64,000 nt of DNA. Origin: Gammaproteobacteria bacterium (GTDB lineage: Bacteria; Pseudomonadota; Gammaproteobacteria; CBDBNL01; JAAOII01). The DNA lies in contig OZ242372.1 in NCBI GenBank assembly GCA_965209035.1, positions 648,958 to 712,957 on the forward strand, in the 5' to 3' direction. Of the stretch, positions 8,358 through 59,221 are shown piece by piece. Numbering within the stretch: position 1 is the stretch's first letter; every line of letters begins with the position of its first letter. The notes beneath the pieces are model-generated. The model ran no database searches, was not told the origin of the DNA, and saw only the letters and a program-made list of their open reading frames with translations. The translations under genes and the position numbers were made by a program.

Positions 8358-8846
8358 GTGCGTCGTCTGTCTGTCTTTTTGTTTTGTGCCTTTGCCATCC
8401 TGGTAGCGGATCAATGGAGCAAACAGGCGGTGACCGTGGCACTCAACCAAGGAGAGCGTATCGCCGTTTTTTCTTGGCTGGACATTACACTGGCGTATAA
8501 TCGCGGGGCCGCCTTCGGTTTTCTGGCAAACACCCCCTGGGCCAACCATATTTTTACCCTGGTGGCATCCGCAGCCTCCATCCTGATTCTTTATTATTTG
8601 TTTAGAAACCGAAACGCGGCTATTTTTCTGCAACAAAGTGCCTTGTCTCTCATCCTCGCCGGAGCACTCGGCAATCTTGCTGACAGGTTCAAACATGGCT
8701 ATGTGACCGACTTTGTCTCCCTGCATTACGGCAATTGGTATTATCCGAGTTTTAATGTTGCCGATGCCGCCATTAGTATCGGCGCCTGCTTTCTGCTGGC
8801 GGATGTTTTTTGGGAAACGTTCCGGTCGGTGCGAAAGAATCGTTAA
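8358..8846 (+). CDS. lspA: Lipoprotein signal peptidase II
   Basis: Four-TM protein with LspA motifs 'NRGAAFGFL', 'GALGNLADR' and 'FNVADAAI'. GTG start. Directly upstream of ispH as in the conserved lspA-ispH arrangement. Confidence 0.85.
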
Positions 8847-8875
8847 TTCTTATTAACTCTTTAAGGCATCAACAA

Positions 8876-9946
8876 ATGGAGATCATTCTGGCAAATCCGC
8901 GCGGGTTTTGCGCGGGCGTGGATCGGGCAATTTTATTAGTGGAAAGGGCTCTGATATTGTTTGGCAAGCCCGTTTATGTCCGGCATGAAATTGTGCATAA
9001 CAAGTATGTTGTTGCGGAGTTGGAAAAGCGCGGTGTCATCTTCGCGGAAGATATCCGCGAGATCCCGCCGAAAAGCACGGTGATTTTCAGCGCGCACGGC
9101 AGTTCCAAAAAAATTCGCCGGGAGGCGGAAGAACGCAGCCTCCGTATTTTTGATGCCATCTGTCCGTTGGTGACCAAAGTGCATATGGAAGTCCAAAGAT
9201 TTGAACTGGAAGGCTACGAATGCATCTTAATCGGACATGCCGGACATCCCGAAGTAGAGGGGACACTGGGGCAGTTCGGGCAGCTGCGGCAGTCCGGTGA
9301 AAAGCGAACCTCAGAACAAGCCCCCAAACAAACAGAAGCACTAACCGAGGCATCACCGGCCAAAGGCATCTATCTGGTGGGCGACTGTTGCCAAGCCGAA
9401 ACAGTGCAAGTCCGCAACCCGGCAAAACTTGCTTATGTCACTCAGACCACTCTGTCCGTGGACGATACAAAAGAAATCATCGGTGTCCTCAAACGCCGCT
9501 TCCCGCAGATCAAAGAGCCGGCAAAAGACGACATCTGCTACGCAACACAAAACAGACAGGACGCGGTCAAGTCGCTGGCCGCCAAATGCGATTTAATTCT
9601 GGTCATCGGCTCGGAGAACAGTTCCAATTCCAACAGGCTCTGTGAAATTGCCAAGAGTTACGGCAGTGTTTCTTACCTGATCAATGATGTCTCTCATATT
9701 AAAAAGAAATGGCTGGATGATGTTCGGGTTGTCGGCATTACCGCCGGGGCATCCGCACCGGAGAAACTGGTGCAAAACACTTTAGATTTTTTTCGTGCAA
9801 ACTATCCGCGCTGCGTGATTCGCAATGCGCCCGGCAAGCCGGAAAATGTCATCTTTAACTTGCCCGCGGAAATTCGCGCGCTGCCGATTAAGAATATTCC
9901 CGTTTGGGAATCCTTGTCCGAGTTCGGCGCGAACGGGGCAAAATAG
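8876..9946 (+). CDS. ispH: 4-hydroxy-3-methylbut-2-enyl diphosphate reductase (IspH/LytB)
   Basis: N-terminus '[19 protein letters not shown]', 'SAHG', 'HPEVEGT', '[10 protein letters not shown]' and '[11 protein letters not shown]' align with E. coli IspH. It carries a roughly 25-aa low-complexity insert ([28 protein letters not shown]) not present in E. coli. Confidence 0.9.
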
Positions 9947-10034: not shown

Positions 10035-10547
10035 ATGCAAAAAAATATTTTTCTAACACTTACGATCCTACTCTGCTGGGGCAGTGTTGCGATCGCCTAC
10101 TTTTACTTTCAGTTGTTCGTCGGTCTGCCCCCCTGCCCTTTGTGTATCCTGGACAGGATGGTCTTGATCTTCATCGGCGTCTGTGTCGCCGGGATGCTGT
10201 TTCTGCCGGGCCTCGCCAAACGCATCGCCTATGCTCTCGCACTGCTCGGCCTGGTTGCCGGTCTTGCCGTCGGCATCCGACATGTTTTGTTGGAACGCTT
10301 GCCACACGACAGCGGCAGTTCGGGCGGCTGTATTCCACAAAAACAGGCGCAGGGTCTGTTGGAATTTTTGACTTCCGCGTTTATTGGCACGGGAGACTGC
10401 GGGGTGGTTTATTGGACTCTGTGGGGGTTCAGCCTGGCGGACTTCACCCTCGTCCTGTATGCGGTTATTGCCTTTTTTTTATTGTTTTTGTTTCCGGCCC
10501 GTCCCGGTCGGTCCTCAAAAGGGGGGGGAATAGAGAGGGAGAAATAA
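10035..10547 (+). CDS. dsbB: Disulfide bond formation protein B
   Basis: Four-TM protein with a 'PCPLC' first Cys pair and a second Cys pair ('GGCIPQ...GDCG') in the second periplasmic loop. Size and topology match DsbB. Confidence 0.72.
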   Translation: MQKNIFLTLTILLCWGSVAIAYFYFQLFVGLPPCPLCILDRMVLIFIGVCVAGMLFLPGLAKRIAYALALLGLVAGLAVGIRHVLLERLPHDSGSSGGCIPQKQAQGLLEFLTSAFIGTGDCGVVYWTLWGFSLADFTLVLYAVIAFFLLFLFPARPGRSSKGGGIEREK

Positions 10548-10566: not shown

Positions 10567-12027
10567 CTAAAAGTGATAGACAAGGCCGTATTGCATCCTC
10601 AGGCGCGGATACTCGGCATTGTTGCGTCCGTTAAAGGTTTCGTGATACAAGTAGCCGATCTCATAGATAAAGTTTAGTCCTTCCCGCACCTCGTGCAGAT
10701 AGTTGAAATGCAACGAGTGCAAAGACTTTGTGGCACCGCCGCCCAATGCCAGTTCGTGTTCCTCGTCTGTCAGGGTGCCACTGAGAATTAAATTGTATCT
10801 TTTGCCGAAGTCCGCGCCAAACACATAGGAATGACTCGTAACCTCCGCCAGTTTGTAATCCGTCGCCCCCCGTTGAAACACCTTGGTCGGTACCACTATA
10901 TAAGACGGGTTGGGGTTGTCGCGCAGGTAGGTGCCACCGTTGTAGATGTATGCCAACTGAATGGCACTGTCGCGTAAAAAGTGCCATCGCCCGCCCAGGT
11001 GAAAGCCGGGGCTTAACACACTCAACCCGCCGGAAAGGGCCTCGTTGAGAGCCAGTTCTTCTTTCAATGCCGGCACTGGCACGGTAGAACCGCCATCGTC
11101 GGCATCGCTCCTCAGTTGTAGCAGCCCTTCGTCTTCTTCAAACAACAGCGGCGCGTTATTGTCCAAACGGACATAACGCATTACCAGGGATACGAACCAA
11201 TCCTGATCCGGCCGTTTTCGGTAATAAGTAAAAACAAAATCCGGTAACACACCGCGGGTTCGGAGACGTCGCCCAACCTTATAAATCCTCTTGTCCTCTC
11301 CATTAAGATCAACAACGTGTACGCGCGGATCGGTAAACACCGTATGCGAGTTCAAATTATCCGCAGGCACATTCTCCGTATCAGTCAGCCCAAAGCCGCG
11401 ATACACCGGATTGTTCGCCTCTTCAAAACCCAAGTAGTAATCTTCACCGAGCCTCAGTCGGATCAGGAACTGCCGCTTGTAGGGAACACCGACGGGGCCG
11501 TTGTATTCAATGAAGTGCGGATAAAAATCCTGTTGAAAATCGGTAAAAGTGGACCAGCCATAACCGAAACTCACGCTCTTGTATTCCGCCCACAATCTGT
11601 ATAGGCGCGGCACAAAGGGATCTTCCCTGTCGCCTTCCATAATGCCCTCGGCGAACACATCATGATGCTCCCCGCGGTGCCCGATACGCACCCGCGAGCC
11701 ACTTAGGGTCCCGCCAAATACGGGCGTATCCGAAAGAAGAGGGCGGCAGTTTAATACATTTCCATCCTCGTCCAGATCCGTAGGAATGCAGGTATTGTCG
11801 GCATCCGGGTCACCGCCGCCGTAATCACCGAACACCGGGGTGCGGGCGGCACGCAGATATGGATCCGCATAAATACTGTCGGCAAAAACACCCACTTGCA
11901 GTTGCCCGCTTACATACCAATCGTCTTCCGATGCTTTCGGTTCGGATTCTTGTGCCGCAAGAACCGGAGGCAACAACAGAACGCAAAAAAACAGGACCGT
12001 GCAGTCACGGTAAATGCGGTATCCCAA
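10567..12027 (-). CDS. Outer-membrane beta-barrel protein of unknown function (signal peptide, C-terminal aromatic 'YHF')
   Basis: N-terminal signal peptide (LFFCVLLLPPVLAAQE), alternating amphipathic beta-strand-like segments rich in Y/F/G, and a C-terminal Phe typical of BAM substrates. Only a TTG start is available in frame. Confidence 0.55.
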   Translation of the reverse strand: MGYRIYRDCTVLFFCVLLLPPVLAAQESEPKASEDDWYVSGQLQVGVFADSIYADPYLRAARTPVFGDYGGGDPDADNTCIPTDLDEDGNVLNCRPLLSDTPVFGGTLSGSRVRIGHRGEHHDVFAEGIMEGDREDPFVPRLYRLWAEYKSVSFGYGWSTFTDFQQDFYPHFIEYNGPVGVPYKRQFLIRLRLGEDYYLGFEEANNPVYRGFGLTDTENVPADNLNSHTVFTDPRVHVVDLNGEDKRIYKVGRRLRTRGVLPDFVFTYYRKRPDQDWFVSLVMRYVRLDNNAPLLFEEDEGLLQLRSDADDGGSTVPVPALKEELALNEALSGGLSVLSPGFHLGGRWHFLRDSAIQLAYIYNGGTYLRDNPNPSYIVVPTKVFQRGATDYKLAEVTSHSYVFGADFGKRYNLILSGTLTDEEHELALGGGATKSLHSLHFNYLHEVREGLNFIYEIGYLYHETFNGRNNAEYPRLRMQYGLVYHF

Positions 12028-12036
12028 AATCTTTTA

Positions 12037-12710
12037 TTAAAACGGATTAAAGTAAGGGTCCAATGTCGTGTACCTGTTAGCCGCGCATGCGGGTGCGTTA
12101 GCCACTTGTCTTGTATCGCCGGGAATCCCAAGGCCAAGATAGAGAGTTTCCCCCTCACGCAAGTAAACACTGCAAACTCTTGCTCTGCCCTGTCTCGCTG
12201 CATCTCCCGCATAGACATAATTGATGGCAGTTGTAGTTCGATTCATACCGCCCAGTGTGGCTATGATTGATCCGGCGGAAAATACGGTGCCGGCGGCGGC
12301 CGCTATATGAGATCTAATACGGGAACGGTCCAATGGAATAATCCGTGCCTGTTGAATAATAGTATTCCTGTCGGCTTCCGACAGCTGCTCGGCATAGCTG
12401 CCGTCTTCCAAATTACATTTAGCGGGATTACTGCCGGATTGCTGAACATAACCCGAAACGGCCTTGCTACCCTCAAAATAAAAAAAACAACGGGTGGGTG
12501 TGTTGCCGACCAGGTCAAATACGGTGCAACCGCAAGCATTGGCTTGGATCCAAAGTCCTTGCAGAGCCTCAATACCGTCGCCGGAGGAGCCGCTGTTGCC
12601 ACCGCCGCCGCAGCCTGAAAGAACAAGCAGCGGAAACAGAGGCAGCAGGCATTTTCTAAAAAACCCCTTGCGAAAAGACGCCGGTTTTGTCAATTTTGTA
12701 AGATAATTCA
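12037..12710 (-). CDS. Cys-rich lipoprotein of unknown function
   Basis: Lipobox 'LLVLSGC' followed by a Gly/Ser linker. ATG at 12710 (MNYLTKLTKP...) chosen over the longer ORF. It ends 9 nt before the outer-membrane protein gene on the same strand, so it is probably co-transcribed. Confidence 0.5.
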
Positions 12711-12895
12711 TTTCCTTATTATACAATTCTTTACTGTCGTTTTTTTCACGGAATGACCCCGCAATACATCTAATGCGACAACAGAAGCACACCAAAACAA
12801 TACGCAACGGACTTCGCAAACGCAAATAGCAGCCGTTATCCCGGGATCTATTGCCGCACGATCGCAAGGCAACGGAATAAACCTATGCAGTTTTT

Positions 12896-14026
12896 TCACA
12901 GAACCACCAAGTTATCGCGATGAATCAATTCGGGTTCGTATTCATAGCCCAAAATCTTGCCTATCTCACCGCTGGCCTTACCGCAAAGTTTTTGACAGTC
13001 CGCCGTCCCGTAATTAACCAGACCGCGCACAACTTCTTTCCCTTTACTGTCATAGCAACCGACCGGATCGCCACGCTCAAACAGCCCTTCAGCACGCACA
13101 ACCCCCACAGGCAGCAAACTGACACCGCTATGGAACACCGCTCGGATGGCGCCGTCGTCCAGATAGAGTTTACCGCGCGGCCGCAACTGGCCGACAAGCC
13201 AACGCTTGCGGGCTGCGGAAGGGGCCCGTCCCGCTCTAAACAGGCTGCCGATATCTTCTCCCAGATGAAGACGACACAACACATTTCGCTCGCCGCCGTG
13301 TGCGACCCGGGTGGGTGTGCCGGAATGCGCCGCCAGACGCGCCGCCCGAATTTTTGTCAGCATACCGCCGCGCCCCAATTCGCCCTTACCGCCGGCAAGG
13401 GCCGCCGTTTTTTCGTCTTCCGCATTCGCTTCTTTGATTAATTTTGCATTCGGAAACAGGCGCGGGTCCGCATCATACAGACCGTCGCAATCCGTCAAAA
13501 TAACGAGAAGATCCGCATTCAACAGATTGGCCGTCATGGCGGCAAGTTCGTCATTATTGCCGAAACAGACTTCCTCATCCAGCAGGGTATCGTTTTCGTT
13601 AACAATCGGCACAAGCCCCAAGTCCAGCAACCTAATCAGAGTGGCGCGCGCATTCAGATAACTTTTGCGTCTTTCCAGGTCATAGTGCGTGAGTAACACC
13701 TGCGCGACACGAAGCCCGTAGGTATCGGCAATGTGTCGCCAGGTACTCATCACAGTCGGCTGTCCCACCGCGGCAGCGGCCTGGAGACTCCGCAACGAAA
13801 CATCCTTTTCTTTCCAACCCAACACTTGTCTGCCGGCTGCCACAGCCCCGGAAGAAACCAACACCAACCGCAGGCCGCGGTCGCGCAGCTCCGCCAACTG
13901 ACGACAAAGGGAATTAATCAGTTGATCGTTGAGCCCCTCTTCTGTCTGACCCTGTTGTGCCAATAAGGAACTGCCGATCTTAACAATCCACAAGGGCGTC
14001 TCGGCGGTCTTTTTTGCTATGTTCAT
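12896..14026 (-). CDS. proB: Glutamate 5-kinase (with C-terminal PUA domain)
   Basis: 'IVKIGSSLL' N-terminus, amino-acid kinase fold and a C-terminal PUA-like region. Full-length collinearity with ProB. Confidence 0.9.
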   Translation of the reverse strand: MNIAKKTAETPLWIVKIGSSLLAQQGQTEEGLNDQLINSLCRQLAELRDRGLRLVLVSSGAVAAGRQVLGWKEKDVSLRSLQAAAAVGQPTVMSTWRHIADTYGLRVAQVLLTHYDLERRKSYLNARATLIRLLDLGLVPIVNENDTLLDEEVCFGNNDELAAMTANLLNADLLVILTDCDGLYDADPRLFPNAKLIKEANAEDEKTAALAGGKGELGRGGMLTKIRAARLAAHSGTPTRVAHGGERNVLCRLHLGEDIGSLFRAGRAPSAARKRWLVGQLRPRGKLYLDDGAIRAVFHSGVSLLPVGVVRAEGLFERGDPVGCYDSKGKEVVRGLVNYGTADCQKLCGKASGEIGKILGYEYEPELIHRDNLVVL

Positions 14027-30374: not shown

Positions 30375-31674
30375 TGCATAGTCTCATAAAGGTTCTGGAC
30401 TCTGAGTTTGGTATTGTGCGTCCTCAGATCAAGCAGCCGGAGGTTCTGTCGGACGGGTCGAAAATAGATCCGGCAACGGGTCTTCGGTATGTGGAGCTAG
30501 ATGAATGAAACGGGCAAGAAGGACGGATAGCTGTTTTGCTCTCACCGCCGCAGACAGCGGAGGCTTGTTGTTGATAAAACTGTCTAGGTGTATCCGCTGG
30601 CGAGACGGTACGGTTTGTGAGGGCAGCCGGACTGCACATTGGAAATGAGAGGAACACGTTTACGCTACATTGGTTATCGCGTGCGCGGTTTCAATAAAAT
30701 GGTGGTTTTAGCAAACAAATATTCAAACATGTCTAAAACCACCAAAATCAAACTGGACACCTTAGCGTTCGCGCGCAAACATGGTGTCGCGGCGGCGCTG
30801 GATCATGCCGGGATCAGTCGTGCTACATTCTACGAGTGGCAGCGGCGTTTCCGTGAAGGCGGGGTCGATGAACTGGCGAACAACTATGGGTATCAGCCCA
30901 AGCGGTCCAACACCTGGCCACCGGCACTGATTGACAAGATCCGGTCTTGGCGACAAGAGCGACCGAATATCGGTCCCAATAAACTGGTCTGCTTGTTACC
31001 CGAATGGTGCCAGCAGCAGGGGCTGCCGGCACCCAGCCGGTCAACCATTGCCCGCATCATCGCTGATGCACCGGGTAAGATGCGGCACCAGTCATCGCTG
31101 ACCGAGCAGAAGAACCCGCGGCAAGGTGCTCCTCGCGAGCGCAAGGACATCTGCTTTGTTGCGGGCCGGAGAGGTGAATGTGTTGCCTTTGATACGCTCG
31201 TCCGCATCGTCGATGGCCGGCGCTTTTATTGGCATGTCGGCATTGACCTATTTTCCCGCTTCTCACTGGTCAGTGTCGACACCTCCGCTGCTTCGGCCAG
31301 TTCCGCCCGGCTCTTTACCGCCATGCAAAACATACTCGGCACTCGGATCGAAAAAGTCCTCACCGATAATGGCAGTGAGTTCGCCAAAGACTTTCACCGG
31401 ATCGTGACCGCAAACGGCAGCACCCACTGGTATACTTATCCAAGGAAACCGCAAATGAATGCACACTGCGAACGGTTTAATCGCACTCTCTGGGAAGAGT
31501 TCGGTTGTCATATGCGGCATCTCTTGGTTAAGGATATGCCGGCATTCAACGCCAAACTCATCGAGTGGTTGGCTTGGTATAATCTTGAACGTCCCCATTA
31601 TGCTCTCAAACAACTCTCGCCGATCCAATTTTTGCAAAAACAACAAAAGTCCAGAAATGGGTGGGACCATACAA
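30375..31674 (+). mobile_element. IS element copy 1 (IS481-like, 1300 bp)
   Basis: A 1300-bp unit repeated in direct tandem. Left end TGCATAGTCTCATAAAGGTTCTGGAC, right end ...GTCCAGAAATGGGTGGGACCATACAA (imperfect terminal inverted repeats sharing TTCTGGAC). It is flanked by TTTGA / TTTG and encodes a single HTH plus rve-type transposase. Confidence 0.75.
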
Positions 31675-31685
31675 TTTGTGCATGA
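30729..31685 (+). CDS. Transposase (HTH + DDE/rve integrase core), IS481-family-like
   Basis: N-terminal HTH ('ISRATFYEWQRRFREGG'), an rve core with 'D..D' and the C-terminal 'NAHCERFNRTLWEEF' E-motif. Single ORF with no frameshift. Confidence 0.8.
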   Translation: MSKTTKIKLDTLAFARKHGVAAALDHAGISRATFYEWQRRFREGGVDELANNYGYQPKRSNTWPPALIDKIRSWRQERPNIGPNKLVCLLPEWCQQQGLPAPSRSTIARIIADAPGKMRHQSSLTEQKNPRQGAPRERKDICFVAGRRGECVAFDTLVRIVDGRRFYWHVGIDLFSRFSLVSVDTSAASASSARLFTAMQNILGTRIEKVLTDNGSEFAKDFHRIVTANGSTHWYTYPRKPQMNAHCERFNRTLWEEFGCHMRHLLVKDMPAFNAKLIEWLAWYNLERPHYALKQLSPIQFLQKQQKSRNGWDHTICA

Positions 31686-32978
31686 TCTCATAAAGGTTCT
31701 GGACTCTGAGTTCGGCATTGTGCGTCCTCAGATCAAGCGGCCGGAGGTTCTGTCGGACGGGTCGAAAATAGATCCGGCAACGGGCCTTCGGTATGTGGAG
31801 CTAGATGAATGAAACGGGCAAGAAGGACGGATAGCTGTTTTGCTCTCACCGCCGCAGACAGCGGAGGCTTGTTGTTGATAAAACTGTCTAGGTGTATCCG
31901 CTGGCGAGACGGTACGGTTTGTGAGGGCAGCCGGACTGCACATTGGAAATGAGAGGGACACGTTTACGCTACATTGGTTATCGCGTGCGCGGTTTCAATA
32001 AAATGGTGGTTTTAGCAAATCAATATTTAAACATGTCTAAAACCACCAAAATAAAACTGGACACCTTGGCGTTCGCGCGCAAACATGGTGTCGCGGCCGC
32101 GTTGGATCATACCAGGATCAGTCGTGCTACATTCTACGAGTGGCAGCGGCGTTTCCGTGAAGGCGGGGTCGATGAACTGGCGAACAACTATGGGTATCAG
32201 CCCAAGCGGTCCAACACCTGGCCACCGGCACTGATTACCAAGATCCGATCTTGGCGACAACAGCGTCCGAACATCGGTGCCGGTAAACTGGTCTGCTTGT
32301 TACCCGAATGGTGTCAGCAGCGCGGGCTGCCGCTGCCCAGCCAATCAACGCTCTCTCGCATCATTGCCGATGACCCGGATAAGATGCGGTGCAAACCATC
32401 GCGGTCCGTGCCGAAACGCCCGCGGCATGGTGCTCCGCGCGAGCGCAAGGACACCCGCTTTGTTGCGGGCCGGAGAGGTGAATGTGTTGCCTTTGATACG
32501 CTCGTCCGCATCGTCGATGGCCGGCGCTTTTATTGGCATGTCGGCATTGACCTATTTTCCCGCTTCTCACTGGTCAGTGTCGACACCTCCGCTGCTTCGG
32601 CCAGTTCCGCCCGGCTCTTTACCGCCATGCAAAACATACTCGGCACTCGGATCGAAAAAGTCCTCACCGATAATGGCAGTGAGTTCGCCAAAGACTTTCA
32701 CCGGGTCGTGACCGCAAACGGCAGCACCCACTGGTATACCTATCCAAGGAAACCGCAAATGAATGCACACTGCGAACGGTTTAATCGCACTCTCTGGGAA
32801 GAGTTCGGTTGTCATATGCGGCATCTCTTGGTTAAGGATATGCCGGCATTCAACGCCAAACTCATCGAGTGGTTGGCTTGGTATAATCTGGAACGTCCCC
32901 ATTATGCTCTCAAACAACTCTCGCCAATCCAGTTTTTGCAAAAACAACAAAAGTCCAGAAATGGGTGGGATCATACAA
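31679..32978 (+). mobile_element. IS element copy 2 (IS481-like, 1300 bp), separated from copy 1 by 4 bp (TTTG) and followed by TTTGA
   Basis: Near-identical ends to copy 1. One internal segment is highly diverged from copy 1. Confidence 0.75.
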
Positions 32979-32983
32979 TTTGA
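32033..32983 (+). CDS. Transposase (second copy)
   Basis: Same architecture as the copy-1 transposase. Confidence 0.8.
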   Translation: MSKTTKIKLDTLAFARKHGVAAALDHTRISRATFYEWQRRFREGGVDELANNYGYQPKRSNTWPPALITKIRSWRQQRPNIGAGKLVCLLPEWCQQRGLPLPSQSTLSRIIADDPDKMRCKPSRSVPKRPRHGAPRERKDTRFVAGRRGECVAFDTLVRIVDGRRFYWHVGIDLFSRFSLVSVDTSAASASSARLFTAMQNILGTRIEKVLTDNGSEFAKDFHRVVTANGSTHWYTYPRKPQMNAHCERFNRTLWEEFGCHMRHLLVKDMPAFNAKLIEWLAWYNLERPHYALKQLSPIQFLQKQQKSRNGWDHTI

Positions 32984-40864: not shown

Positions 40865-42088
40865 TTAATTTTTAATGATGCGATTAACTTGCTTGGCCGC
40901 CCGTCTGAGGTTGGTGCGCGCGTTGCCCTTGCCTTGGTAAGTTTTTTGCAAGGCACTGCCGGTCGCATCCGCAGCTTCTTCCCAACCCTTCAGAGTCGGC
41001 GCAAAGTGCGCATAGGGTAACATGCCGGAAAATGCTTGCAGGTTTGGATCATTGGCAAAGTAAGGATCCGCCGCCACCTTCACGTGCACAGGCATAAATC
41101 CCTCTCCTTTGGTGAACTTGCTGCGCCACTTCTCTTGGAAAATAAAGTCCAGGAATTTAAATGCCGCATCCTTGTTTTTGGAATTTTTGAAAAGAACAAT
41201 GGAGTCTGTCACGCCGTATGTTGCATACCTTTTGGCCTTGGGAATGAGAGCAATACCAAAATCAACATTTGGCGCTTCCGCTTTCATTTGACCCGTCAGC
41301 CAGGGACCGGTAAACATCATACCGAGCCTTCCCTGCTTGAACAGATTCTGAAGGTCTTCGCGCGCATAATCGGTTACACCGGGCTGTGTCAAACCTTTGT
41401 CAATCATCTTTTTATAGAAGTTTGCCGCTTGTATGGCTTCGGGAGAAGCAATGCCACTCTTACCGTCAACGACAATATCACCGCCAAAGGCCCAGAGTGC
41501 GTAATACCAATAAGCATCCGTTTCAATTTCCTTGCCCTGTAAGCCGAATCCATAGGCATCCGGTAAGGCGGAAATTTTTTCGGCAGCTGCGTAAAGTTGA
41601 TCCCAAGTTTCGGGAACGGAAGTTACGCCGGCCTTTGCAAAAAGTTCTTTATTGTAATACATGGCACGGGCCGAGGCGGCTACGGGCAAGCCGTAGGTTT
41701 TGCCGTTCAGAACGGACGGTGCCAGGAAGTTACCAATGAACCTGCTTTTTAACTCGGGCGTCATATGACCGTCCAAGGGTTCAATCACATCTTGGTCGAC
41801 AAAATCCAACAGCCATCTGGTGCCGATAATGGCGATGTCCGCGTTGGCATTGGCGGTAATGTCGGTAGTCAGTTTTTGTAACAGGTTATCCCAGTTAACA
41901 ACTTCCACTTTGACCTTAATGTTTTTGTTCTGTCTTTCAAATGCACGGGCGGCCTCTTCAAAGATGGGGCCGGATTTGGCACTATAGTATGCCACCGTGA
42001 ATCTGACTTCATCGGCTGCTTGAACATTGATGCTCAAGAACCCGAAAGATAAAAGAAAGATATAAAAAAGAGTTTTGATTTTTTTCAT
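40865..42088 (-). CDS. Extracellular solute-binding protein (family 1, sugar ABC)
   Basis: Signal peptide (MKKIKTLFYIFLLSFGFLSINVQA) and a roughly 380-aa periplasmic binding-protein fold with typical Trp/Tyr-rich segments. Confidence 0.8.
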   Translation of the reverse strand: MKKIKTLFYIFLLSFGFLSINVQAADEVRFTVAYYSAKSGPIFEEAARAFERQNKNIKVKVEVVNWDNLLQKLTTDITANANADIAIIGTRWLLDFVDQDVIEPLDGHMTPELKSRFIGNFLAPSVLNGKTYGLPVAASARAMYYNKELFAKAGVTSVPETWDQLYAAAEKISALPDAYGFGLQGKEIETDAYWYYALWAFGGDIVVDGKSGIASPEAIQAANFYKKMIDKGLTQPGVTDYAREDLQNLFKQGRLGMMFTGPWLTGQMKAEAPNVDFGIALIPKAKRYATYGVTDSIVLFKNSKNKDAAFKFLDFIFQEKWRSKFTKGEGFMPVHVKVAADPYFANDPNLQAFSGMLPYAHFAPTLKGWEEAADATGSALQKTYQGKGNARTNLRRAAKQVNRIIKN

Positions 42089-57374: not shown

Positions 57375-57447
<73 letters not shown>

Positions 57448-57470
57448 AAAAAAATAGACTGTGAACTCTA

Positions 57471-58661
57471 TTATTTTATGACTTTGGCCACCACGCCCGC
57501 ACCAACAGTCCGACCGCCTTCCCGTATGGCAAAGCGCAACCCTTCTTCCATGGCAATAGGAGCGATCAATTTAACCAACATCTTGATGTTATCTCCCGGC
57601 ATGACCATTTCTACCTTGTCCGGTAACTCGACCTCGCCGGTAACATCAGTGGTCCGAAAATAAAACTGCGGCTTATAACCCTTTATAAACGGCGTATGTC
57701 TTCCGCCTTCGTCTTTGGTCAGAATGTAAACCTCGGCTTCAAACTCAGTATGCGGAGTGATACTGCCGGGTTTGGCAAGCACCTGTCCGCGCTCCACGTC
57801 TTCGCGCTTTGTCCCTCTCAACAAGACGCCCACATTCTCGCCGGCTCTGCCTTCATCCAAAAGTTTTCTAAACATTTCAACGCCGGTGCAGGTCGTCTTT
57901 GTTGTATCCTTGATACCGATAATTGCCACTTCCTCATGAACCTTAACGATCCCGCGCTCAATTCGCCCGGTGACCACGGTCCCACGGCCTGAGATGCTGA
58001 AGATATCTTCTATGGGCATCAAAAACGGCTTGTCTATGTCTCTCTTAGGTTCCGGAAAATACTCGTCAAGCGTTTCCACCAGTTTAATGACAGAACCCGC
58101 CCCCATCTCACTCGTATCTCCCTCCAGAGACTTGAGTGCGGAGCCCACAATAATCGGAGTATCGTCACCGGGGAACTCGTATTTTGTCAGAAGTTCTCTG
58201 ATTTCTACTTCCACCAGTTCCAATAGTTCTTTGTCGTCGACCTGATCGGCTTTGTTAAGATAAACCACAATTCGGGGGACCCCTACCTGGCGTGCCAGAA
58301 GGATGTGCTCCCGAGTCTGCGGCATAGGACCGTCGGCGGCGGAAACCACCAAAATAGCGCCGTCCATTTGGGCCGCACCGGTAATCATGTTTTTGATGTA
58401 GTCCGCGTGTCCCGGACAATCCACATGCGCATAATGTCTCTTGTCACTTTGGTATTCCACATGCGAGGTTGCTATGGTAATACCGCGTTCTTTTTCTTCC
58501 GGAGCATTGTCAATACCCGCAAAAGTCAGAGCATCTCCGCCCCATTTGTCGGCACAAACTTTTGTAAGAGCGGCCGTCAAAGTAGTTTTCCCATGATCCA
58601 CATGACCGATGGTTCCCACATTAATATGGGGTTTTGTTCTTTCGTATTTTTCTTTTGCCAT
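57471..58661 (-). CDS. tuf: Elongation factor Tu
   Basis: '[31 protein letters not shown]' and full-length identity pattern to EF-Tu. Confidence 0.98.
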
Positions 58662-58716
58662 TTTTTATCTTCTAAAATAAAATTTAATTTTTATAAAATC
58701 CAATCGTCAAACTCAA

Positions 58717-58789
<73 letters not shown>

Positions 58790-58822
58790 AACCTCATTCT
58801 TATTTGCCGTTACTTTAACTTA

Positions 58823-58893
58823 AGCGGGTAGCGGGGATCGAACCCGCATTCTCAGCTTGGAAGGCTGATGTGCTACCATTATACCATACCCGC
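58823..58893 (-). tRNA. tRNA-Gly (UCC)
   Basis: Cloverleaf with anticodon TCC. Confidence 0.85.
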
Positions 58894-59057
58894 AAGAATT
58901 GCATAAAACATAAGACTCGCACAGCACATGATACAAAAGCATTAATAAAATAATACCCGACAGAGAATGACTCGCACCAACGCAACACAAGAATTATAAC
59001 AAAAAAAACTAAAAAAACACGCTTTTTAATGATTTTTTATCAAATCTTTGTTAAAAA

Positions 59058-59139
59058 TGGAGAGGGCAGGATTCGAACCTACGAAGCACGAGGCGGCAGG
59101 TTTACAGCCTGCTGGGTTTGACCGCTCCCCAACCTCTCC
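59058..59139 (-). tRNA. tRNA-Tyr (GUA), long variable arm
   Basis: Cloverleaf with anticodon GTA and an extended variable arm. Confidence 0.85.
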
Positions 59140-59148
59140 CCAATAATA

Positions 59149-59221
<73 letters not shown>

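Follow-up and report, generated by a model that had tools for sequence, protein, structure and literature searches.

The stretch of DNA analyzed here (64,000 nucleotides of contig OZ242372.1 from a Gammaproteobacteria bacterium, assembly GCA_965209035.1; hereafter the window) carries on its minus strand 2 adjoining genes that encode a cysteine-rich lipoprotein and an outer-membrane β-barrel protein. An earlier interpretation made from the letters alone (the sequence-only reading) had placed them at positions 10567–12710 and described a 224-amino acid lipoprotein ending 9 nt before a 486-amino acid protein. We confirmed both open reading frames (ORFs), the lipoprotein gene upstream and the barrel gene downstream, and the gap between the lipoprotein stop and the barrel start is indeed 9 nt. 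The span was right at its start and 1 base short at its end, the lipoprotein ATG being located at 12711; apart from this offset and the strand, which it did not name, the earlier description of the ORFs was accurate. The barrel gene begins with a TTG codon, and no alternative in-frame start keeps the signal peptide. The 2 genes are:

12037–12711, minus strand: lipoprotein gene (ATG at 12711, stop codon at 12037–12039), 224 amino acids, Cys-rich, orphan family
10567–12027, minus strand: barrel (outer-membrane porin) gene (TTG start at 12027), 486 amino acids, divergent barrel of the DcaP type with 16 predicted strands

Judged by conservation, neither is a chance ORF and both are genuine genes, because homologues exist for each of them (40–65% identity for the barrel, 27–46% for the lipoprotein) and each set of homologues has its own conserved motifs.

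Family assignment of the barrel

The sequence-only reading had attributed to the downstream product a signal peptide, acidic loops and a terminal YHF barrel signature, and all of these were recovered (...PPVLAA followed by QE at the likely cleavage site, the acidic stretch DPDADNTCIPTDLDEDGN at residues 73–90, and the C-terminal YGLVYHF). In the AlphaFold2 (AF2) model of the protein, a helix at residues 2–27 precedes a first strand at residues 37–50, so that approximately 12 residues separate strand 1 from the predicted cleavage site. Along the gene, the features are:

11956–12027, minus strand: signal peptide, approximately residues 1–24, with a putative cleavage site between PPVLAA and QE
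11722–11877, minus strand: enlarged loop L1, residues 51–102, with the DLDEDG motif at 84–89 and Cys80/Cys94; a putative loop, assigned through the alignment with DcaP
11470–11559, minus strand: loop L3 (constriction), residues 157–186, GWSTF...P..(I/D)Y.GP.G..Y.RQ; the segment best conserved with DcaP-family proteins
11242–11397, minus strand: family-specific L4 insertion, residues 211–262, without counterpart in the DcaP-like profile; hairpin at 235–251 in the AF2 model
11023–11163, minus strand: family-specific L5 insertion, residues 289–335, with the LDNNAPL motif, helices at 300–310 and 318–331 in the AF2 model, and 12 invariant columns
10837–10941, minus strand: loop L6, residues 363–397, with the invariant motif YLRDNPNP
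10570–10599, minus strand: C-terminal strand with the β-signal, ending in YGLVYHF; F486, Y484 and Y480 invariant

The DLDEDG motif resembles a DxDxDG calcium-binding loop and may be of that type; it is only partly conserved. Five homologues have both Cys80 and Cys94, and in the remaining ones both are substituted, a co-occurrence that fits a disulfide within L1. The putative extracellular loops L1, L3, L5, L6 and L8 are conserved equally to the strands (mean top-residue frequency of 0.64 for both), and the periplasmic turns, of 2–3 residues each, are the least conserved parts of the barrel (0.33–0.56).

Scans of the window barrel against Pfam and NCBIfam gave no match, and the Pfam family PF19577 (DcaP outer membrane protein, with a gathering cut-off of 27 bits) did not appear at E ≤ 1. 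A word-index search of 5.8 billion proteins returned only 8 barrel homologues (40–65% identity), in which the terminal Phe is invariant. When the profile of these 8 sequences was run exhaustively with HMMER against 1.84 billion cluster representatives, 5 matches were obtained at E ≤ 1e-30, corresponding to the query itself, 2 full-length relatives and 2 fragments, together with approximately 75 further weak matches (E from 6e-19 to 1e-3). The 11 barrel-sized weak matches that were scanned all fit PF19577, and 10 of them reach the cut-off, P0022 scoring 23.7 bits. Alignment of the barrel family with 20 PF19577-type proteins by hhalign scored 99.9% (E 2.6e-32) over residues 102–482 and 293 columns. 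A joint profile matched the solved DcaP chain 6eus_A with an E value of 1.6e-50, and structural comparison returned a 16-stranded porin barrel with DcaP as the closest structure; PDB sequence searches with the barrel or lipoprotein family profiles alone had yielded nothing meaningful. By these profile methods the downstream product is an outer-membrane β-barrel, as the sequence-only reading had proposed, and a distant member of the DcaP branch within the 16-stranded porins. The claim that neither product belongs to a nameable family thus does not hold for the barrel, and it stands for the lipoprotein.

With DcaP from Acinetobacter baumannii (PDB 6EUS) the barrel shares the L3 motif G.(T)WS.F...P...D(F/Y).G..G...RQ, basic wall residues (R185 and R190 in the window protein), an IPT motif in L1 and the C-terminal Phe, at an overall identity of only 14%. 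Over 28 sequences R185 is invariant and R190 nearly so, and the L3 motif aligns with the DcaP-like consensus. The basic residues around L3 (GWSTF...P..Y.GP.G..YKRQ..R) are only partly resolved as one-to-one equivalents of the arginines of the DcaP wall, which are Arg114, 148, 150 and 189 (bioRxiv 10.1101/306035). The constriction-wall arginines give DcaP a strong anion selectivity and permeation of dicarboxylates, for example phthalates and succinate (bioRxiv 10.1101/306035). The differences are also clear. DcaP of A. baumannii has a periplasmic coiled coil of approximately 60 residues at its N-terminus, for which the window barrel, with strand 1 from residue 37, has no counterpart. Because the PF19577-positive proteins P0021–P0023 (368–380 amino acids, matched from HMM position 64–72) have no room for it either, the coiled coil is a trait less of the DcaP family than of the Acinetobacter protein. 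Compared with DcaP, approximately 120 extra residues lie in L1 (51–102), L4 (211–262), L5 (289–335) and L6 (363–397), all putative extracellular loops; the L5 insertion is mostly unmatched in the profile–profile alignment, and the invariant motifs LDNNAPL and YLRDNPNP are specific to the family. Furthermore, the window-type barrel is always preceded by a lipoprotein gene and lies in a housekeeping operon setting, not in a catabolic dca cluster, and the paper on the DcaP structure describes no partner lipoprotein (bioRxiv 10.1101/306035). On sequence grounds these barrels form a distinct DcaP subfamily because the Pfam DcaP model misses all 8 members, the coiled coil is absent, and the loops carry the additional residues.

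Other assignments were considered and rejected. The trimeric 16-stranded porins Neisseria PorB, Comamonas Omp32, Vibrio VhChiP, OmpF/OmpC-type proteins and OprP are clearly more distant than DcaP, and Pfam and PDB profile searches gave no sequence-level signal from the window barrel to any of these families. The barrel does not have the properties of an OprD/Occ channel (an 18-stranded monomer, Pfam OprD). For a Slam translocon, which combines a 14-stranded DUF560 barrel with periplasmic TPRs, there is neither a Pfam match nor an N-terminal domain, and the fold is that of a DcaP-type 16-stranded porin. The polysaccharide export barrels with a partner lipoprotein (AlgE, PgaA, PelB, BcsC) agree with the window pair in neither similarity, partner domains nor linked genes. 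Three large repeat proteins among the weak profile matches (P0025, P0049 and P0069), which appeared as a possible explanation of the loop insertions, proved spurious, their Ig, PKD and YadA-stalk repeats scoring by accumulation.

The lipoprotein family and its linkage to the barrel

The upstream product begins with a basic region and the hydrophobic core CLLPLFPLLVL, followed by the lipobox L-S-G-C and a Gly at position +2. This agrees with the pattern [LVI][ASTVIL][GAS]C with a +2 residue other than Asp, and both acylation and sorting are predictions from sequence alone. The lipoprotein gene comprises:

12610–12711, minus strand: signal peptide ending in the lipobox LSGC; predicted acylated Cys34 at 12610–12612, Gly at +2
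12571–12609, minus strand: Gly/Ser tether CGGGGNSGSSGDG, residues 35–47, carrying the conserved G-x-SGSS motif
12040–12570, minus strand: mature folded domain, residues 48–224, with a GLW motif and six conserved Cys, predicted β-rich

The lipobox is kept in 11 members of the lipoprotein family, an LLGC variant included. The sequence-only reading had remarked on the lipobox, the G/S linker and at least 8 cysteines, suggestive of disulfides. We counted exactly 8, of which C21 lies in the signal peptide, C34 is the residue predicted to be acylated, and C60, C62, C75, C99, C180 and C209 belong to the mature domain. The last six occur in all full-length members, including the non-lipidated paralogues described below, which implies three disulfides and makes the earlier suggestion probable. 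In an 18-sequence alignment L53, W54, C60, C62, C75, Y78, S86, G87, Y88, C180, L190, R213 and Y220 are invariant and G52, R74, Y167 and C209 nearly so, and C99 is invariant in a 9-sequence alignment. G41, S42 and S43 of the tether are invariant in an alignment of 6 sequences. All lipidated members carry G-x-SGSS a few residues past the acylated Cys (homologous positions in L001–L012, our designations for the loci compared), and the non-lipidated paralogues lack it; the motif is a candidate sorting signal, glycosylation site or threading segment. The structural model of the lipoprotein is poor (pLDDT 55.5) and predicts eight strands together with a helix and a strand at the C-terminus. The structural matches do not rise above noise, and a Foldseek search returned nothing at E ≤ 0.001.

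Used as a single sequence in the word-index search, the lipoprotein matched only itself. Homologues were therefore first taken from the loci of the barrel homologues and then used as a profile query, which retrieved 9 proteins from the 5.8 billion; one more locus (L012) came from a metagenome scan. No match was found for any member or for the profile in Pfam, NCBIfam or PDB sequence searches, and homologues occur only beside the barrel family or beside proB. By these searches the lipoprotein is an orphan family with no described relatives. The sequence-only reading had held that a known porin family with a routine partner lipoprotein would lower the novelty of the pair, and it had named DcaP among its examples; the barrel does fall in such a family, and its partner is not a routine one.

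The linkage of the 2 genes was analyzed in the context of their flanking genes, of which proB had correctly been placed upstream of the pair on the same strand:

12896–14026, minus strand: proB, with AA_kinase and PUA domains, the last housekeeping gene of rplU-rpmA-obg-proB; 184 nt from the lipoprotein gene
12712–12895, minus strand: 184-nt spacer between proB and the lipoprotein gene, with no terminator-like or promoter-like site predicted
10035–10547, plus strand: dsbB (PF02600 match), convergent with the barrel gene and ending 19 nt from the barrel stop

Upstream of the lipoprotein gene, proB, obg, rpmA and rplU follow on the same strand, and downstream of the barrel gene lie the convergent dsbB, ispH, lspA and a gene for a UbiG-like methyltransferase. 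In all loci with a barrel homologue, the gene immediately upstream encodes a related lipoprotein-family protein. The lipoprotein gene is directly upstream of the barrel gene in the window, in L001–L008, in L012 and in the pair K0U41_09625/09630 (K0U41_09625 and K0U41_09630 are consecutive NCBI locus tags); in L012 a second, non-lipidated paralogue stands between lipoprotein and barrel. The intergenic distance ranges from an overlap (L002 and L012) to 68 nt. The order rplU-rpmA-obg-proB-lipoprotein-barrel recurs in L001, L002, L003, L005/L006, L007, L008 and L012, of which L007 and L008 are two complete chromosomes of metagenome-assembled genomes named 'Gammaproteobacteria bacterium'. Across the loci, identity to the window is 52–69% for proB, 43–65% for obg, 40–65% for the barrel and 27–46% for the lipoprotein, and the window EF-Tu is the sole member of its own 90% cluster. 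By sequence divergence, the genomes that carry the pair are far apart.

The pair is unbroken where its flanks have been broken at least 3 times. In one sample, a metabolic island parts proB and a paralogue of the lipoprotein (L009) from the pair (L004); in L004 the pair is kept, a truncated GFO_IDH_MocA oxidoreductase gene fragment precedes it and there is no proB on the contig. In L005, L007 and L008, a restriction-modification-like insertion and an inversion of ispH-dsbB are found downstream of the intact pair. Both families share one narrow distribution in the same clade, as judged from the 5.8 and 1.84 billion proteins searched. On this evidence, the pair is conserved throughout a small clade of uncultured Gammaproteobacteria, and it behaves as a conserved two-gene unit, in agreement with the two-gene module of the sequence-only reading. 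We conclude with moderate confidence that, to judge from this linkage, lipoprotein and barrel form one functional unit.

Secreted, non-lipidated paralogues of the lipoprotein with ordinary signal peptides were found in L010 (L010b/P0016) and L012 (L012b) and as P0015 and P0017. The family has been duplicated repeatedly (L009 7001–7645; L004 3–683 and 1354–2019; L010 3317–4768; L012 2904–4552), and in L010 and L012 a lipidated paralogue lies in tandem with a non-lipidated one. In the sample of L009 and L004, one family copy stays beside proB after the separation by the island, which contains genes for a GFO/IDH/MocA oxidoreductase, a TPP enzyme, IlvD and an ABC transporter. The insertion in L005 (6803–10603) consists of three genes directly downstream of the barrel gene, the first encoding an Eco57I/MTS-type methyltransferase and the other two proteins of 172 and 608 amino acids without Pfam match; the block resembles a restriction-modification or defence insertion.

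In the 184-nt spacer, no consensus promoter or terminator site was predicted on the minus strand, an Rfam scan gave no match, and the predicted fold is unremarkable (z −0.30). The corresponding spacer measures 27–42 nt in L001, L002, L003, L009 and L010; that of L012 has 119 nt. From this arrangement it is plausible that transcription of the constitutive rplU-rpmA-obg-proB genes reads through into the pair, and the porin and lipoprotein genes are probably co-transcribed.

Further features of the window

The lspA gene for the lipoprotein signal peptidase (8358–8846, plus strand) lies 1.7 kb beyond dsbB, whose product recycles the oxidant for disulfide-bond formation. A functional tie of the pair to these 2 genes is attractive for a Cys-rich lipoprotein. 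We have not adopted it, and the proximity is probably coincidental, because they are convergent housekeeping genes that have shifted position and orientation in L005, L007 and L008 without any change to the pair. Between them, the ispH ORF (8810–9946, plus strand), the start of which overlaps the end of lspA, is listed with 378 amino acids compared with 324–344 in relatives; the Pfam LYTB match of IspH (LytB) covers residues 25–326 over 267 profile positions, so that IspH would contain an inserted segment and end in a tail of approximately 50 residues. The rplU product L21 (16398–17264, minus strand) is 288 amino acids long; it contains an internal segment rich in Gly, Asp and Ser and ends in a long tail rich in Ala, Lys, Ser and Pro. 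An extended L21 occurs in relatives as well (158–231 amino acids); that of E. coli has approximately 103. Tandem ORFs of 348 and 346 amino acids (30639–31685 and 31943–32983, plus strand), both with helix-turn-helix and rve integrase-core domains, resemble two adjoining copies of one insertion sequence in otherwise housekeeping surroundings. The G+C content falls from approximately 0.50–0.53 at 1–40000 to approximately 0.45–0.46 at 42000–64000, the part with rpoBC, ribosomal-protein and tRNA genes, where the GC skew is strongly negative and five tRNA genes lie at 57375–59221.

Function of the pair and comparison with known systems

With slightly better than even confidence, we take the module to consist of a diffusion porin and a dedicated accessory lipoprotein. 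The downstream gene would provide a DcaP-type 16-stranded porin, presumably trimeric, through which small anionic or organic-acid solutes most likely diffuse passively; by analogy with DcaP, we infer this preference because the L3 constriction loop and the basic wall residues are retained. The lipoprotein would be processed by LspA and, having Gly at +2, be sorted by the Lol pathway to the outer membrane; the +2 sorting rule is established, yet it is only a guide outside enterobacteria. There, the Gly/Ser tether would hold a β-rich domain of approximately 175 residues, locked by three disulfides, in the periplasm under the channel, where it could act as a porin-associated binding, hand-off or stabilizing module. 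A periplasmic placement is suggested because some lineages have non-lipidated paralogues with ordinary signal peptides, and we know of no default route that takes such proteins out of the periplasm. The module would be functionally comparable to the periplasmic coiled coils of DcaP and ScrY, which this subfamily lacks and for which a comparable function has been proposed (bioRxiv 10.1101/306035). The pair would probably be transcribed with, or just after, the constitutive genes that end in proB.

Several observations weigh against an accessory lipoprotein of this kind. The whole neighborhood from proB to dsbB-ispH-lspA is syntenic in these small genomes, and as the flanking genes share this synteny, being adjacent is by itself weak evidence; physical contact between lipoprotein and porin is a supposition. 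The Pfam DcaP HMM detects none of the 8 barrel-family members, even at E ≤ 10. In the nearest DcaP-like outgroup examined (P0021, locus L011) there is no such lipoprotein, the upstream gene encoding an unrelated secreted protein of 315 amino acids at a distance of 500 nt, and the partnership would therefore be specific to this barrel subfamily. Any ligand-binding fold for the lipoprotein is conjecture on the present model. The tiny periplasmic turns offer little docking surface, and the conserved surfaces are those thought to be extracellular. Since the turns are small and poorly conserved and the extracellular loops are conserved, a surface-exposed or threaded partner would fit better; the invariant small-residue motif of the tether is not explained by a periplasmic placement and pulls in the same direction.

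That the lipoprotein is a true porin subunit, displayed on the surface or arranged in the manner of RcsF, nevertheless seems rather improbable to us, although we regard it as the chief rival. On the surface it would sit over the large, conserved extracellular loops like a lid that captures ligand; threaded, it would have its lipid in the outer leaflet and its folded domain in the periplasm, with the Gly/Ser tether of small residues passing through the lumen of the porin. Either form would suit the conservation of the extracellular loops, which matches that of the strands and exceeds that of the periplasmic turns, and the invariant G-x-SGSS that only lipidated members carry after the acylated Cys. 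The tight spacing of the genes (9 nt, overlap in L002 and L012) would favor stoichiometric co-assembly, and complexes of RcsF with outer-membrane proteins, which are assembled by BAM, are an established precedent. However, the non-lipidated paralogues would remain periplasmic, so that the fold should work there, the lumen of a DcaP-type porin is narrowed by L3, no gene for a Slam-like or other surface-lipoprotein export factor is found among the nearby window genes, and the structural matches are only at noise level. We give a similarly small chance to the lipoprotein being an obligate structural subunit that makes the porin a new type of two-component diffusion channel, either as a disulfide-locked small-barrel cap or through an SGSS tether threading the lumen.

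It is unlikely, but less so, that the 2 products are merely neighbors, independent envelope proteins in a slowly rearranging, housekeeping-rich region, the lipoprotein having a role of its own such as envelope stress sensing or binding of a small molecule. Synteny extends, in most loci, to the functionally unrelated genes proB, dsbB, ispH and lspA, L009 has a family member after proB without an adjoining barrel, and the lipoprotein evolves faster than the barrel (27–46% against 40–65% identity). The L009 copy, however, is a paralogue, another copy adjoining a barrel on the contig L004 from the same sample. Chance proximity also sits badly with a pair that stayed together through at least 3 breakages of its flanks, with genes 9 nt apart or overlapping, and with two orphan families of the same narrow distribution in the 5.8 and 1.84 billion proteins searched. 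The sequence-only reading had further offered export as one option, in which the barrel would be a dedicated secretion pore for a polysaccharide or, as in Slam systems, for the lipoprotein itself. Pairs of a lipoprotein and a barrel are typical of polysaccharide export and of Slam (AlgK/AlgE, PgaB/PgaA and PelC/PelB; Slam with surface lipoproteins). Nevertheless, the window barrel has no TPR, POTRA, DUF560 or other Pfam match, glycosyltransferase and polymerase genes are absent among the nearby window genes, and the porin-type constriction motif in L3 is conserved. Fold, lack of accessory domains and neighborhood effectively exclude an export or translocon role.

If the proposed partnership of porin and accessory lipoprotein is true, a classical passive porin can have a lipoprotein subunit that is dedicated to it and coupled to it genetically; if the 2 proteins are only neighbors, the finding comes down to a remote DcaP homologue and another orphan lipoprotein. 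The channel itself is ordinary in kind, and only its lipoprotein partner is new. The analysis adds a deeply divergent DcaP branch, which escapes the present models of Pfam and NCBIfam. In annotation pipelines this porin would stay 'hypothetical', although it may be a major porin of a lineage with genomes of approximately 2 Mb, and the barrel and lipoprotein alignments could seed two new family models.

Known partnerships of lipoproteins with channels are mainly those of Bacteroidota TonB-dependent transporters, LptDE, and the genetically unlinked RcsF and MlaA. In its invariant G-L-W after a short N-terminal helix, its predicted strands and its lipid anchor on a flexible tether, the window lipoprotein may recall lipocalin/calycin-like lipoproteins (Tp0751, the N-terminal domain of NlpE, a ZinT-like domain, BACUNI_01346), the lipocalin fold being an eight-stranded up-and-down barrel with an N-terminal GxW motif. 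The scores of this similarity are at noise level, there is no lipocalin Pfam match, and the pattern of six Cys and the helices inserted in the fold set the window family apart. Operons of the chiPQ type are alike in that a solute channel gene is co-transcribed with the gene for a small lipoprotein of unknown role. Their gene order is reversed, with the porin first; ChiQ is a predicted lipoprotein, and enterobacterial ChiP is an OprD-like monomer, not a DcaP-like one. The chiPQ-ctb cluster has been described (PMC9582717). No similarity of the window lipoprotein to named lipoprotein families was found in Pfam and NCBIfam, ChiQ itself not being directly compared.

Outer-membrane lipoproteins that work physically attached to porins are a further parallel to the proposed pair. 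RcsF, which acts with OmpA/C/F, is a lipoprotein that has disulfide bonds and a flexible linker at its N-terminus, and MlaA acts with OmpC/F. A Pfam scan of the window lipoprotein gave neither an RcsF nor an MlaA family match, and MlaA is helical whereas the window lipoprotein is predicted to be β-rich. The association of MlaA with porins has been reviewed, and DcaP has been suggested as a possible MlaA partner in A. baumannii (PMC11131202). Neither RcsF nor MlaA is encoded beside its porins, unlike the lipoprotein of the window; a partnership here would, in contrast to that of RcsF, be hard-wired in one operon and conserved across an uncultured gammaproteobacterial lineage.

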